NCBI GenBank assembly: GCA_963833985.1
Contig: CAWIAD010000001.1
Location: 3,040,001-3,104,000 of the forward strand
Direction: 5' to 3'
DNA from: an uncultured Planctomycetaceae bacterium
GTDB taxonomy: Bacteria; Planctomycetota; Planctomycetia; Isosphaerales; Isosphaeraceae
Length of the DNA stretch: 64,000 bases
Part shown: positions 8,985-57,061 of the stretch, one piece after another
How the letters are laid out: each line of letters begins with the position of its first letter
How positions within the stretch are numbered: position 1 is the first letter of the stretch
Program-made: the position numbers and the translations under genes
The notes under the pieces: model-generated
The model's input: only the letters and a program-made list of their open reading frames with translations
Told to the model about the DNA's origin: nothing
Database searches by the model: none

Positions 8985-9057
8985 TCCCCGATAGCTCAAT
9001 CGGTAGAGCGAGCGGCTGTTAACCGCTAGGTTCAAGGTTCGAGTCCTTGTCGGGGAG
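8985..9057 (+). tRNA. tRNA-Asn(GTT)
   Basis: Acceptor stem TCCCCGA/TCGGGGA, D-arm GCTC-AATCGGTA-GAGC, anticodon arm AGCGG-CT-GTT-AA-CCGCT, T-arm with GGTTCGAGTCC; CCA not encoded. Confidence 0.97.
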
Positions 9058-52614: not shown

Positions 52615-53081
52615 TGCGAAGACTCGTCGGGATCTCGAAGAGAACCAGGTCCAGCCGCTTGCCACCGGGAACCGATGGACCAGCCGCTGGAAACGAAGCC
52701 TCAGGAATGCGGGGCAGCCATTGAGAGTCTGTCCCACATGGGGAACAATCAGAGGCCGACGGCCCTGGCCAGGTATGCGGAACAAGGGGATGAGACCGGT
52801 GAAACGGGCCTGCCGCTGGCGAGCCTCACGGGTTGACCCTCAAGCCTCTCGCGTGGGACAAGATTCCATTCTTGTCTCTTCAAATCTTCTGATGATCCTC
52901 TCGTTTCGTGACAAGATGTAGAGTCGAGGTGTGGCGCGGTGGGCTCGAGTCGATGGCTCGGCTGGGCCTCGTTTCCACACCCCGCTCATCAAACTGGACG
53001 GGCGGTGTTCCCGCATCCAGCTTTCGGACAAGGCTTGTCTCATCGGTTGAGTTCACACGTTCGCTCACGAAACCATCGCGG

Positions 53082-53681
53082 CTAGGTTCGTTGCAGCTGG
53101 TAAAGATGCAACTCCTGGTGCAGGTATCTGTCAGGGTAGCGTCTGAGCCCCTGACCCGGCACCTTGAACTTCGCACACAACCACTGACGTACCCGGTAGC
53201 GGACGTGGTGGTTGACTTGGCGATAGGCTGGGCTCACCGTTCCGATGCGAAAATAGTTGGACCAACCGCGGAACTTGCGATTGATCCGACCAATCTGCAT
53301 CTCGACGTCCTGTCCAGTGGTCTGGCGCGTCGTCATCGCACTGATCTCGCTGCACAGCCGAATGATCTTCTTCCGCGATGGGCGTGACCCTATGTAGGAT
53401 CGGCCCGTTCGTCGGTCGTAGTTCCGGCCGAGGGTATAACCCAGAAAGTCGAACGTCTCCTCAGGCAGGTGGCACAGCCGCGTCTTGGTCTCGTTCACCG
53501 TTAACTTCAGCCTGGACATCATCTTCCGCATCACCGTCATGGCCTCTTCGGCCGTGCCGCGACAGCAGATGACGAAGTCGTCCGCATAGTTGACGATTCG
53601 CGCGACCAGACGCCGCTCGTGTCCACCAGTCTTCCATCCCTTCACAAATCGTCGCATGTAGATGTTGGACAACAATGGTGA
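53082..53681 (-). pseudogene. Group II intron RT/maturase, C-terminal part (interrupted)
   Basis: SPLLSNIY..YADDFVI..LKLTVNETKT..FDFLGY, then maturase X domain (RGWSNYF); no endonuclease domain. Confidence 0.92.
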
Positions 53682-55335
53682 GATCACGCCCCCAACAATG
53701 TTGCGAACTACGTTGTTGGGGGCCTTTCTCAAAAGGGGACGGACTGACCCGATACACGATGCGGACCTCCTGCTCGTCGATCTCGACCTTCTTCACCAAG
53801 GCCCGAACCACCTCCCGTCGCGTGGCCCAGTCCGGCTCTTGCAACCCTTGCGAGACGCGACGTGCGAACTCCTCCAACTGACCGATCACCAGTCGCAATT
53901 CCGCCTCTTGGGCGGCCTCGCCGATTCGTTGTCGATGCTCCTCCGCCAATCTCGAGAGGCGCGTCCTTGCCGCCGAGATCCGGGGCTCGAACTCCGATTT
54001 GTCGAGCAACCCGTCGCCGTAAGCATCGATTAATCGAGAAATCATCTTTTTCACATTATTTATCAATTTGCCGAGATGCTCCACCTCCTGATTCGGCCCG
54101 CCCTGGGCACCCTGCAGCCGCCGCTCGTACTCCTCCCGGACCCGCTCCGGCTCGGACAGGAGACCTCGTAAGTCCTCCCAGACGGCAGCGTCAAGGATAT
54201 CGGTGCGGATCTGCTTGTTCCAGCAGAGGCGCTGCCCGCCGAAACGATAGGCGTCAGAGCCCGTGCAACGGTAGTACGCGTAGCGGACCCTACCCTTGCC
54301 CTCGAACGCGGCTCGGCTCGTCGGCTTGCCGTAGCAGCCGTAGCCGCAGCGCTTGCAGACGACCAGGCCCTGGAGCAGATATCGGCCACCGCCGGGCCGG
54401 TCGCGACGGCGTTGCCGGTTCTCTTCAAGCTGGGCCTGGACAGCCAGGAAGAGGTCTTCGCTCACCAGCCCGGGGACTTCAATGAAGATTTGATCTTCCG
54501 AGGATGTATCAACCCGTGAGACCGGTCGCCGGGAGTGTTCGGGGCGGCCTCGCTGCGGGCGGAGGCGTTGAGGTTTGAACTCACCTGAGCGCGTCTTGCC
54601 GAAGGCCGCGGTCCCCTTGTAGGCAGGGTTCTTGAGGATCAACCAGACCGTCGCGCGATCCCAGGCCGATTTCCCGGTCCGCGTCGGGATACTGTCGCGC
54701 CGGAGGCGTCGGCACACCTCGCCGATCGAGCACCGTTCCTGACCCACCCATTCGAAGATCTTCCGCACGACCCGGGACTCTTCAGCGAGGACCTGATAAC
54801 GCGCCTCGCCACCTCCCTCGTGCTTGCCGATGTAACGGTAGCCGTACGGTGCGCCGCTGAGGACGTTGACCGAACCGCGGCGGGCGGCGTGTTGCTTGCC
54901 CCTGCGGCAACGCTCCATGATCTTGGCGCGCTCGTATTCCGCGATCATTCCCTGGACCTGAAGCAGCAGGTCGGCTTCCGGACTGCGGCCGACGGGGTTG
55001 CGCAAGAAGACGACCTCGACACCGCACCGGATAAGTTCCTCAAGGATCAAGACCTGATAGGCATACTTGCGTGAAAGTCGATCCGGATCGAGCATATAGA
55101 GGCGGTCGATGGCTCCAGCGGCGGCTTGGTCCCGAAGTCGCTCGAGTGCCGGTCGGGCCAGGATGTAACCGCTGACGCCGTCGTCCACGAAGTGCAGTTC
55201 GGGCTCGCATTCCAAGCCATCAGTGGCGATCCGCTGAGTGACCGCCTCGAGCTGGCTGGCGATCGTGTCCTCCTTCTCCTGCTGCTCCCCCGAAACCCGG
55301 GCGTAGAGCGCCACGCGGAGATTGTCCGTGATCAT
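53461..55335 (-). CDS. Large serine recombinase (resolvase + recombinase + Zn-ribbon + coiled coil)
   Basis: ALYARVS (catalytic Ser), DDGVSG..RPAL, DRLSR, AEYER, APYGY, LKNPAYKG, LLQGLVVCKRCG..YYRC. The last 73 aa are encoded outside the element. Confidence 0.95.
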   Translation of the reverse strand: MITDNLRVALYARVSGEQQEKEDTIASQLEAVTQRIATDGLECEPELHFVDDGVSGYILARPALERLRDQAAAGAIDRLYMLDPDRLSRKYAYQVLILEELIRCGVEVVFLRNPVGRSPEADLLLQVQGMIAEYERAKIMERCRRGKQHAARRGSVNVLSGAPYGYRYIGKHEGGGEARYQVLAEESRVVRKIFEWVGQERCSIGEVCRRLRRDSIPTRTGKSAWDRATVWLILKNPAYKGTAAFGKTRSGEFKPQRLRPQRGRPEHSRRPVSRVDTSSEDQIFIEVPGLVSEDLFLAVQAQLEENRQRRRDRPGGGRYLLQGLVVCKRCGYGCYGKPTSRAAFEGKGRVRYAYYRCTGSDAYRFGGQRLCWNKQIRTDILDAAVWEDLRGLLSEPERVREEYERRLQGAQGGPNQEVEHLGKLINNVKKMISRLIDAYGDGLLDKSEFEPRISAARTRLSRLAEEHRQRIGEAAQEAELRLVIGQLEEFARRVSQGLQEPDWATRREVVRALVKKVEIDEQEVRIVYRVSPSPFEKGPQQRSSQHCWGRDLTIVVQHLHATICEGMEDWWTRAASGRANRQLCGRLRHLLSRHGRRGHDGDAEDDVQAEVNGERDQDAAVPPA

Positions 55336-55700
55336 GGTTTGTCAAACCCCCCCGACCTTGGACTGGATAGTGTGGACCACAGTCGCGTGGTTGCGGCTGG
55401 GTCGCGGCCGATCCAGGCGCTGCGAAACGACCGGGATCAAGACCTGATATGCACGCGCGATCAATTGCTCCTGAAGCCGAGTGAACTCGAAGTGGCGGGT
55501 GACAGGAGGACTGAACGTGGGCCTCCGTGGGGACGTGATCATGTCGACTCCTCCTCTCCGAGAGCGCGGCCGCCAGCCTGCCTTGGATCGGGATCGAGTC
55601 GGGGCTGCCATCCGTGCCCGTACTTCGGTCGAAGCCGCGATCTGGAAATGACAGAGTCAGGAATCAGGGACGATTTTGCAACATTGTTGGGGGCGTGATC
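53682..55700 (-). mobile_element. Minimal large-serine-recombinase element with 23-bp terminal inverted repeats
   Basis: GATCACGCCCCCAACAATGTTGC (53682-53704) and its perfect reverse complement (55678-55700). Removing 2015 bp leaves one GATC and restores the RT frame (GTPQGAPI-SPLLSNIY). Confidence 0.92.
55342..55542 (-). CDS. Small accessory protein upstream of the recombinase (66 aa)
   Basis: Strong RBS GAGGAGGAG 5 nt before ATG; MITSPRRPTFSPPVTRHFEFTRLQEQLIARAYQVLIPVV..; stop 6 nt before the recombinase ATG. Confidence 0.7.
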   Translation of the reverse strand: MITSPRRPTFSPPVTRHFEFTRLQEQLIARAYQVLIPVVSQRLDRPRPSRNHATVVHTIQSKVGGV

Positions 55701-56395
55701 GGTGCACCTTGCGGTGTACCCATCCCCTGGTCTTTATTCCGGGTCGTTCGATGGCGCTGCCCCTTCCCGTCGGTTTCTTCCACCGGTGTTTCCAGCCACA
55801 TCTTGATCAGCCGCAGGACGCGACCGTCGCTGATGCGCCGTGACGCCGATTTCATTAACTCGGAATGGGGTATGCTATCGAAATATCCAGATAAGTCCGC
55901 GTCCACCACCTCGGTGTGCCCCGTCTTGAGCAGCCGTTCGACTTCGCGGACGGCGTCCAGGGCGCTGCGCTCCGGGCGGTAGGCGTGTTGTTCCGGCTCC
56001 AGGTCGGCCTCGAAGATCGGCTCCAAGACCAGCACCGCAGCCATCTGCACCACACGATCCTTGATGCAAGGAATGCCCAGCGGCCTTTGCTTGCCGTCCC
56101 CTTTGGGGATGTACACGCGCCGCACCGCCTGGGGTTGATACGTCTCCTTACGAAGTTGTTCCGCCAGTTCGTCCAGCCATCGTTCCTTCCCGGACGCCTC
56201 GATGTCGGCGAAACTCTGGCCGTCGATCCCCGGTGCGCCGCCGTTGGCACGGCAGCGTTCGTAGGCGAATCCCAGAACGTCACGTCGATAAATCTTGTCG
56301 TACAGGACGTAGAACCGATAGTTGGGCGCGTTCTTCGCTTTGGTGTGCAACGCCGTCTGCAACTTCCCGACCTTCAGTGGAGGTGATAGACTCAC
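55697..56395 (-). pseudogene. Group II intron RT/maturase, N-terminal part (interrupted)
   Basis: RFYVLYDKIY, GAPGIDG, RVYIPKGDGKQRPLGIP..DRVVQ, YRP.RSA.DA, VVDADLSGYFDSIPH, GTPQGAPI. Confidence 0.93.
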
Positions 56396-57061
56396 GCCAA
56401 TCTCCCGGCTGTCTGCCGCTTGTTGCGTTGACCTTGAACCAAGGCCCCTTCCCTCGACCGGAGTTACCCGGCGTCGACGGTACTACGGGCCTCTCCGCCA
56501 CCCCAGGCAGCCCGGCCGGTCCCTCGCGGGCGTCCGGTTGAGGGTCACGCGCCCTCACCGCTTGGGGTTTCCCGTGTTGTGTTGATCTCCGTGTGCCGAC
56601 ATGCCGTCGTCAATACCCCGGTGGCCCGCTGGGTTCTGATCGCTCGTGGGGCGGCCTATTCCAACCGTTTCCCTTTCATCCCCAGCGACGGCGGCCTTCC
56701 CCATATTCCAGCAAGGTCGGCGACCACATTGGACTTTTCGAGGCCTGCTCAACGTTCACTCGCGTTACGGCCTGTCGGTTCGCTGCATCGCCAAGCGACA
56801 CATCTGTCTCGAAGGCTCCGACGGTTTCGTCTCCTCCACCGCCGCTCCGATAGCTACCGGCTGGAGCGACCCAGTTGCCGGGTGGGAGTTACACCCACTG
56901 AAGACCAACACCTTTCCACGGCGCACCGGAATCGTGTCCCACGAGGCCGGACCTCATTGCATGGACTCTGAGAAGTTTGACGCAGATGAACGAACGAATC
57001 AAGAGTACAGGTGTTCCGAACCACGTGCTGTCTTTCATTCAGCACAGACCGGCCGCGGGGC

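Follow-up and report, generated by a model that had tools for sequence, protein, structure and literature searches.

An insertion-sequence-sized serine recombinase element in a group II intron reverse transcriptase gene: insertion sites, relatives and a proposed split-gene switch

What kind of mobile DNA interrupts a group II intron reverse transcriptase (RT) gene between its PQGAP and SPLL motifs, and how it finds that point, are the questions raised by positions 53682–55700 of a 64,000-nucleotide stretch of DNA (the window) from an uncultured Planctomycetaceae bacterium (assembly GCA_963833985.1, contig CAWIAD010000001.1, 3,040,001–3,104,000 of the forward strand). These 2019 bp are bounded by a terminal inverted repeat that is perfect over 23 bp; among the 25 longest inverted pairs in 7 kb, the two element ends form the sole pair of 20 bp or more with above 90% complementarity. 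Cutting out 2015 bp yields an open 432-aa RT/maturase with GTPQGAP-I-SPLL and YADD, which confirms the restored frame proposed in the initial annotation, including its position at an Ile codon. The 5' half of the gene (55700–56395, minus strand; codons 1–232, ending in PQGAP) and the 3' half (53082–53682, minus strand; SPLL, YADD and the GIIM domain) were recognized as open reading frames (ORFs) with matches to TIGR04416, RVT_1 and GIIM. Overall, the inserted DNA is real, belongs to a wide family and has expanded recently, and we regard it as likely that it represents an insertion sequence (IS)-sized element moved by a large serine recombinase (LSR) specialized on group II intron RT genes.

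The limits of the element were determined by comparing the 11 copies found in the source genome (99.9–100% identical), two of which lie away from the RT target. In these off-target copies only two bases are common to both ends (AT/AT in one, AT/TT in the other), and consequently the core consists of 2 bp and the arms begin at CAC. The element proper occupies 53685–55697 (minus strand), with 2013 bp between the two cores, or 2015 bp including one of them. Copy comparison places the crossover cores, both AT on the minus strand, at 55698–55699 (left junction, the first two bases of RT codon Ile233) and 53683–53684 (right junction). The 23-bp inverted repeat initially described is thus present in the window, but its outer G and C belong to the target. 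Likewise, target and junction had been described as centered on GATC, which is not borne out, as the core is only 2 bp long and variable; GATC as the target is ruled out by the off-target copies and by the table of 64 sites presented below. The two arms, which are the half-sites of the element's attachment site (attP), are identical over 20 bp and at 22 of 23 positions. The left arm (55675–55697, minus strand) also encodes the first eight codons of the conserved tail frame discussed below, and the right arm (53685–53707, plus strand) lies inside the recombinase frame. Among 102 arms, chosen by having at most four mismatches to the left arm of the window, positions 3, 11–13, 19, 20 and 23 are invariant. 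Crossover at a central 2-bp overlap within sites of approximately 50 bp, as seen at these junctions, is the arrangement of LSRs, and the palindromic attP explains insertion in both orientations. Beyond the recombinase, the tail frame and a 66-aa ORF, the 2-kb element holds no genes; it is free of cargo, as stated in the initial annotation, whose interpretation is supported on the points examined but which missed that attP splits the integrase gene. A promoter scan returned nothing exceeding shuffled controls. A structured RNA at the left end, of the bridge-RNA kind, was also considered and rejected (mean z −0.3 over 40 left ends, no common fold).

We then focused our attention on the sites at which relatives of the element are inserted. 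A protein search of GTDB contigs found 548 relatives, of which the best 80 were taken and 79 loci kept, and an exact arm pattern search added 83 stretches. Ends were called on all of these together with two plasmid loci and the 11 own copies, resulting in 73 distinct sites, of which 64 have both ends and the flanks resolved; no call was obtained for 43 loci, which are truncated or have too divergent a tail. Relatives were retrieved by LSR or arm sequence, never by RT. Of the 64 sites, 45 are exactly at PQGxx/xSP of group II RTs. At 38 sites an RT 5' half and a 3' half meet at this motif, 16 with the element forward and 22 with it reversed (p = 0.42 against 50:50), as anticipated when insertion in either orientation was first suggested. 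The other RT sites have two 5' halves (4), two 3' halves (2), or a 5' half with a duplicated arm (1); a tandem duplication of the right arm was observed at L138:4600-4642. The targeted RTs form 13 clusters at 60% identity and 8 at 50% (n = 23 with long enough 5' halves), with a median identity of 41%, and group II RNA matches, belonging to several Rfam families, were found at 11 of 17 loci scanned. Moreover, elements 96–100% identical to each other are found in different RTs, including a group whose copies occupy three distinct RTs, a sulfatase gene and two further places, which argues for targeting and not for co-inheritance alone.

The family is broad, as its records come from Planctomycetota, Chloroflexota, Acidobacteriota, Spirochaetota and several Proteobacteria, with arm or element matches also in 48 plasmid records. 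Ends, which the initial annotation had asked to be verified, and size are kept among the homologues (1920–2058 bp, with LSR identities of 47–100%), and distant Pseudomonas and Burkholderia-group loci and plasmid pDK1 have the same RT motif at their junctions. Among 61 relatives of the source genome, 10 carry a match. As read from the junctions compared, insertion of the element at the first two bases of the codon within PQGxx/SP, in either orientation, in unrelated introns and in many phyla, is shown; we hold the targeting of group II RTs with high confidence. The claim that the RT motif serves as the attachment site of the target (attB) stands as a preference, not as an exclusive rule, given that 19 of the 64 sites fit no RT pattern.

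Some loci deserve separate mention. The TOL plasmids pDK1 (L080, NC_014124.1:98865-100462) and pWW53 carry a member at the RT motif that is annotated merely as recombinase fragments. In Azospirillum brasilense (L161 and L057/L160), the element alone makes up a 2011-bp contig, with 403x in its name against 116x for the neighboring contig, and this coverage suggests several element copies; element-only contigs also occur at L029, L046, L058, L136 and L196. At L055:3078-5161, the two flanks are one sequence inverted over 76 bp, resulting either from insertion in a palindrome or from recombination between two copies.

The 19 sites outside the RT pattern include Fic, sulfatase, intergenic and unassigned targets, and one of them (L041) is an RT by Pfam. 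Three of them are at a motif of the IS256 transposase and one at an IS5 motif. A second search found three further IS256 sites and a locus with the IS5 motif (L049), some with only one junction visible. In a tree of 100 LSRs (FastTree), the LSRs of the eight IS256/IS5 sites group in a single clade (support of 1.0) that also contains the LSR of L161, a locus lacking its flanks; in this clade, the arms are changed and the IS256 insertions are at one codon. RT targeting is otherwise widespread across the tree, which is midpoint-rooted without an outgroup and does not establish the ancestral target. In L006, L010 and L011, the arms start with GAC and the elements sit in repeated sequence, similar to repetitive extragenic palindromes (REP), that resembles an RT 5' half. 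A Planctomycete clade (L211, L213, L214, L222, L073 and L077) has tails of 25–35 codons and unassigned targets other than RTs.

How could a DNA recombinase recognize one codon in such different genes? Counting outward from the core, both RT halves have C at position 3, CC at positions 5–6 and G at position 14, bases that come from fixed positions of Gly and Pro codons on one side, and of Ser, Pro and Ala codons on the other; the element arm shares C3, C5 and C6. The non-RT halves keep G14 in 22 of 30 cases (p = 1e-6) and C3 in 19 of 30, and for this reason G14 and C3 are probably read by the enzyme. The first two positions of the G/P and S/P/A codons would then impose a pseudo-palindrome resembling the element arms, in which case conservation of the protein keeps the DNA target available. 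The outer arm best matches the target when shifted inward by 5 bp (RT 3' halves and non-RT halves) or 4 bp (RT 5' halves), with z-scores inflated by coding constraints. In attB sites of serine integrases, the outer binding motif has been placed 5 bp nearer the center than in attP (PMC11722253).

Cores differ between the two ends at 26 of the 64 sites, in 21 of them with AT on one side. This mismatch includes sites in single continuous genes (L002, L027 and L147), where the cores are best read, from the sequences compared, as coming from the donor at one end and from the target at the other. Singulisphaera acidiphila DSM 18658 has two copies (L004 and L135), with cores CT/CT in one and CT/AC in the other, as if a core had been carried between sites. 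Serine recombinases generally do not religate mismatched ends, according to the same source (PMC11722253). Some mismatched-core sites are chimeras of two copies, and in an inverted pair 15 kb apart (L082 and L022/L132) the RT halves are swapped. Together with the sites having two like halves, this pair shows, as far as junction sequences tell, that recombination between copies joins halves of different RTs.

Within the source genome, the history of the element can be followed along with its host intron. This intron extends from 56926 to 52918 (minus strand), within a short repeated palindrome, and measures 1994 nt without the element. It has the features of a group II intron: an RT/maturase ORF with YADD, the terminal motifs GTGCG...AC (consensus GUGYG...AY), a D1–D4 piece upstream at 56760–56900 and domain V downstream of the RT at 52943–53025 (Rfam, E = 1.4e-5, below the gathering score). 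The target of the intron itself is the center of the palindrome (52840–52960 and 56926–56945), presumably a REP-like sequence, which has approximately 31 genome matches at 2 mismatches and 101 at 4. Besides the 11 full copies, the genome carries one 398-bp remnant at 81% identity. Nine copies are at one codon of this one intron's RT (seven co-directional, two reversed), and two are elsewhere. Among 13 intron 5' ends, 2 are empty, 9 are interrupted, 1 is degenerate and has the remnant, and 1 is truncated where a contig begins within an element arm; the further copies and uninterrupted introns sought since the initial annotation are thus present. A second, distinct group II RT is without the element. 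All interrupted RTs are otherwise open, one of them with a later IS near its end. The degenerate intron (G000:C2:4627300-4628500) is approximately 95% identical and has the 3' end of an element of only 81% identity, the mark of a previous insertion at this site by a related element. One off-target copy (G000:C2:5865418-5867437) has a 1-bp insertion that shifts the LSR frame at codon 463. In one reverse-orientation copy (L224, G000:C2:2147500-2148860), an ISAs1-family element, of which the genome has 3 copies, lies near the RT C-terminus, making three nested mobile elements.

A single-nucleotide polymorphism (SNP) of the intron, 16 bp from the core, is C in all seven forward copies, and A in the two reverse copies and the two empty introns (Fisher p = 0.028 for the 9 interrupted introns and 0.003 for all 11). 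Each intron copy has its own flanks and exact intron ends. Given this orientation-linked SNP and these separate flanks, as few as two original insertions may account for the nine copies, with later multiplication by retrohoming, for which RT would be supplied in trans, or by gene conversion.

We next turn to the recombinase. Its gene (53686–55335, minus strand; assigned by ORF, Pfam and fold) has 550 codons within the element and no stop; in the window, its frame continues into the 3' half of the RT gene until a stop codon at 53461, for a total of 624 aa. The protein has Resolvase (PF00239, residues 8–155), Recombinase (PF07508) and zinc-ribbon (PF13408) domains; Y11-A-R-V-S15, with the catalytic Ser, is invariant in 45 of 45 sequences, as are four Cys. 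In the structural model, helices 414–440 and 446–495 form a coiled coil by the criterion applied, and the best matching folds are the SPbeta, phiC31 and Bxb1 integrases (16–18% identity). The frame reaches the right arm without a stop, and in database homologues the protein ends 1–373 residues further on, in sequence that is unrelated. If followed around the predicted circle, the frame would run through attP into a 53-residue left-end tail, giving 603 aa. This tail corresponds to a conserved 52-codon frame without a start (55539–55697, minus strand; frame and codon analysis), in phase with the recombinase over the predicted circle junction, and with its stop lying on the start codon of the small ORF. 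By sequence, attP falls within the LSR gene, whose tail is encoded at the far end of the element, and the integrase gene is thus divided by the very site at which the enzyme would act. Moreover, the core fold extends to residue 528, and what follows is a linker modeled with low confidence (residues 531–550), so that the integrated form keeps every known domain.

Several lines of evidence bear on the tail. In 44 left ends selected by DNA arms alone, its frame is open for at least 45 codons in 42, and the other two frames in 0 and 5. LSR and tail stay in phase in all 64 sites, the right end having been chosen on DNA similarity irrespective of frame. The tail has the approximate motif F..I.R..LR..YG.GF, in which six codons occur for the conserved Arg, six for Leu and four for Gly. 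Its ratio of nonsynonymous to synonymous polymorphism (pN/pS) is 0.42 (95% confidence interval 0.18–0.90), against 1.09 and 1.24 in the other frames and 0.24 in the last 60 codons of the LSR, and a profile of it retrieved 364 protein matches. By these codon-level measures the tail is conserved as a protein. It probably belongs to a circle form of the LSR; that it sets the direction of the reaction is an idea that we favor only slightly.

Adjoining the recombinase is the 66-aa ORF (55342–55542, minus strand), with AGGAGG 7 nt upstream. Its product is conserved in homologue comparisons (159 homologues, with R22 and Y32 invariant in 22 of 22), and has no family in Pfam or PHROG, its Atlas matches being below 0.9 and unnamed. 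Recombination directionality factors are small conserved proteins that are encoded beside an integrase, bind it and reverse its direction. From size and position, we guess that this candidate is such a directionality or accessory factor.

Taken together, a life cycle can be proposed in which the element, by the chemistry of LSRs, would be excised as a 2015-bp circle with a 42-bp palindromic junction, restoring the RT gene, and would reintegrate even where the 2-bp cores mismatch. Mobility through a circle is, in our judgment, very likely. An integrated copy would make the 550-aa core with a target-derived end, and the circle alone the 603-aa tailed form. Most likely, this would be a built-in switch of direction, in which the tailed enzyme integrates and the tail-less enzyme excises together with the small protein; the reverse role for the small protein is also possible, as its start is coupled to the stop of the tail. 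Inside the ORF loop of the intron, the element would also travel with it, by retrohoming with RT from intact copies or by gene conversion, and copies would recombine with each other, swapping RT halves.

A number of observations weigh against this proposal. The circle junction had 0 matches by exact or degenerate patterns, in two metagenome scans and in one viral scan, and contigs from four sequencing runs did not contain it either (highest word share 0.48, no run being of the source genome); no circle-form end was seen among the 110 LSR C-termini read, out of 120, or among 150 tail matches. As palindromes assemble badly, the missing junction is weak counter-evidence. In one run contig, 2015 bases are lacking, which corresponds to an empty site in a relative. 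Concerning the tail, no LSR C-terminus was found upstream of it in the best 150 of the 364 tail matches, among which no unsplit LSR bearing the tail was seen either. Relative L026 has a stop within the tail, L029 a tail of 33 codons, and the distal half is poorly conserved (pN/pS 0.70). Because 43 loci had no call, the constant phase holds for loci with a recognizable tail. The small protein, besides lacking a family match, gives a weak single-helix model (predicted template modeling score, pTM, 0.23). In addition, the site sample leans to Planctomycetes and kin are not independent, many copies from metagenome-assembled genomes have frameshifts, recombination between copies can yield some of the core mismatches, and other intron SNPs are mosaic, such that retrohoming and gene conversion are not separable.

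Could the site distribution result from an LSR transposon of relaxed specificity, which has a loose motif, accumulates in introns as harmless sites and is copied along with them, without specialization on RTs? The sites outside the RT pattern, with Fic, sulfatase and intergenic targets, would fit such an element, as would the loose motif seen in off-target halves and the orientation-linked SNP, which shows copying along with the intron. However, harmless sites are plentiful in introns, IS and intergenic DNA, and yet insertions converge on one codon in RTs of 13 or more clusters, over most of the LSR tree, while the arm-changed clade lands on one IS256 codon; we consider this explanation unlikely. 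Somewhat less improbable, though still doubtful, is that the left-end frame is not part of the recombinase, being a separate peptide, expressed by frameshift or by read-in from the flank, or a by-product of DNA or RNA signals. No circle-form protein was seen among the LSR C-termini and tail matches examined, there is an ATG in the arm, in another frame and beside an A run, and gene callers give ORFs entering from the flanks. On the other hand, this ATG is missing in relatives L021, L037 and L041, there is no conserved in-frame start, and no RNA folding signal was detected in the 40 left ends. Furthermore, synonymous codon use points to selection at the protein level, and the LSR is without its own stop and keeps its phase with the tail in all 64 sites.

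A domesticated on/off switch, with the host or the intron controlling when the RT is restored by excision or inversion, as in the skin or fdxN elements, would agree with the undecayed state of the interrupted RTs, with an excision that would be precise, and with best NCBIfam matches that include XisF and CcrB, far below cut-off. Nevertheless, multiple near-identical copies, a patchy distribution (10 of 61 genomes) and off-target insertions are the pattern of recent selfish expansion, and RT is already supplied by the two empty introns, making a switch very improbable. As to a false joining of two repeats during assembly, the two contigs of this genome both begin at or beside an element junction. 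Even so, the same junctions recur in dozens of independent assemblies, including the closed genomes NC_019892 and NZ_CP186274 and plasmid pDK1, and an empty site is seen in run contigs. Misassembly is unlikely because nine copies have different flanks, the genome has two empty introns, and relatives occur in independent and closed genomes; we give an artefact practically no weight. The specialized LSR element thus remains our preferred reading.

Among the closest known systems are the multi-targeting LSRs of the TndX/TnpX type, which move elements to many sites via a 2-bp core, with several target clusters, and have DUF4368 in 63% of their clade (PMC10083194). The present LSR would likewise move its element via a 2-bp core to several target gene clusters, and counts as multi-targeting by the operational definition of Durrant et al. 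(a 90% LSR cluster with more than three kinds of target). In contrast, it lacks DUF4368 (no Pfam match at E 0.1), and the element is a cargo-free 2 kb with a symmetric attP and a variable core, its targets being one motif of other mobile elements. The motifs of the family were not found in the supplementary files of that study that were searched (PMC10083194). Phage LSRs target conserved genes such as magnesium chelatase and prolyl isomerase (PMC10083194). Domain order, fold, a small adjacent gene and conserved-gene targeting are shared with the integrases of SPbeta, phiC31, Bxb1 and A118/LI, and the attB/attP geometry, with its 4–5 bp shift, may be similar. Unlike those, the element has no phage genes, inserts in both orientations and has attP within the integrase gene. 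That type is also characterized by identical cores at both ends and by carriage on a phage or an integrative and conjugative element, whereas here the cores differ at 26 of 64 sites and the 2 kb hold no further genes. Site-specific phage integrases have 1–3 target clusters at 50%, against 8 RT clusters at 50% (n = 23) plus others in this family.

IS607 combines a small TnpA with an N-terminal helix-turn-helix, a fixed GG core, little target specificity and TnpB, and has a circular intermediate joined via the overlap dinucleotide (PMC4058570). IS size and serine chemistry are common to both, the circle being only predicted here, but our element has a 550-aa LSR, terminal inverted arms and a strong target motif, and its IS607 match is 25.9 bits against a cut-off of 110. 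The suicidal integrases of SSV1, pTN3 and pT26-2 have the attachment site within their gene, so that integration changes the protein, and an all-in-one control of direction has been proposed for them; they are tyrosine recombinases, called exclusively archaeal in a review, and the split removes the catalytic part (PMC8371274). By sequence, the attachment site inside the integrase gene is a shared trait, whereas the present enzyme is a serine integrase from bacteria, whose core stays complete on integration and which would be deprived of its C-terminal tail alone. The Myxococcus phage Mx8 also has the attachment site in its integrase gene and exchanges the C-terminus; this logic is closer than that of the suicidal integrases, but the enzyme is a phage tyrosine integrase. 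Twintrons and IS in group II introns are further cases in which the ORF loop of one mobile element harbors another and carries it along; in our case, the guest is moved by a DNA recombinase and enters introns of different classes at one fixed codon. By analogy, the element would combine the workings of an LSR transposon with a life cycle akin to that of IS607 and a gene layout like that of the suicidal integrases, while lacking defining features of IS607, of phage-type integrases and of archaeal suicidal integrases.

In the literature covered, we found neither LSR elements that target the RT genes of group II introns nor a serine integrase divided by its attP; bioRxiv supplements, figures, and the ISfinder and group II intron databases were outside this coverage and may contain such a mention. 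On balance, we favor the view that this is an undescribed, multi-phylum family of minimal serine-integrase elements that parasitize mobile elements (mostly RTs, and IS256/IS5 in one clade) via codon-imposed pseudo-palindromes, that tolerate mismatched cores, and whose direction is governed by a permuted gene with a tail joined only on the circle. If so, three departures from serine integrases would be united in 2 kb: attP is symmetric, unmatched cores would be tolerated, and direction would be switched by splitting the gene, the last of these so far reported for tyrosine integrases in the literature covered. Sister clades with small arm changes and different targets would be material for the study of LSR specificity reprogramming, which is relevant to genome-insertion tools. 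Lastly, for the introns themselves, the element would be a parasite that shuffles RT halves between intron classes and may limit intron spread, with 11 of 13 intron copies hit in the source genome.

A tRNA gene is also present in the window, at 8985–9057.

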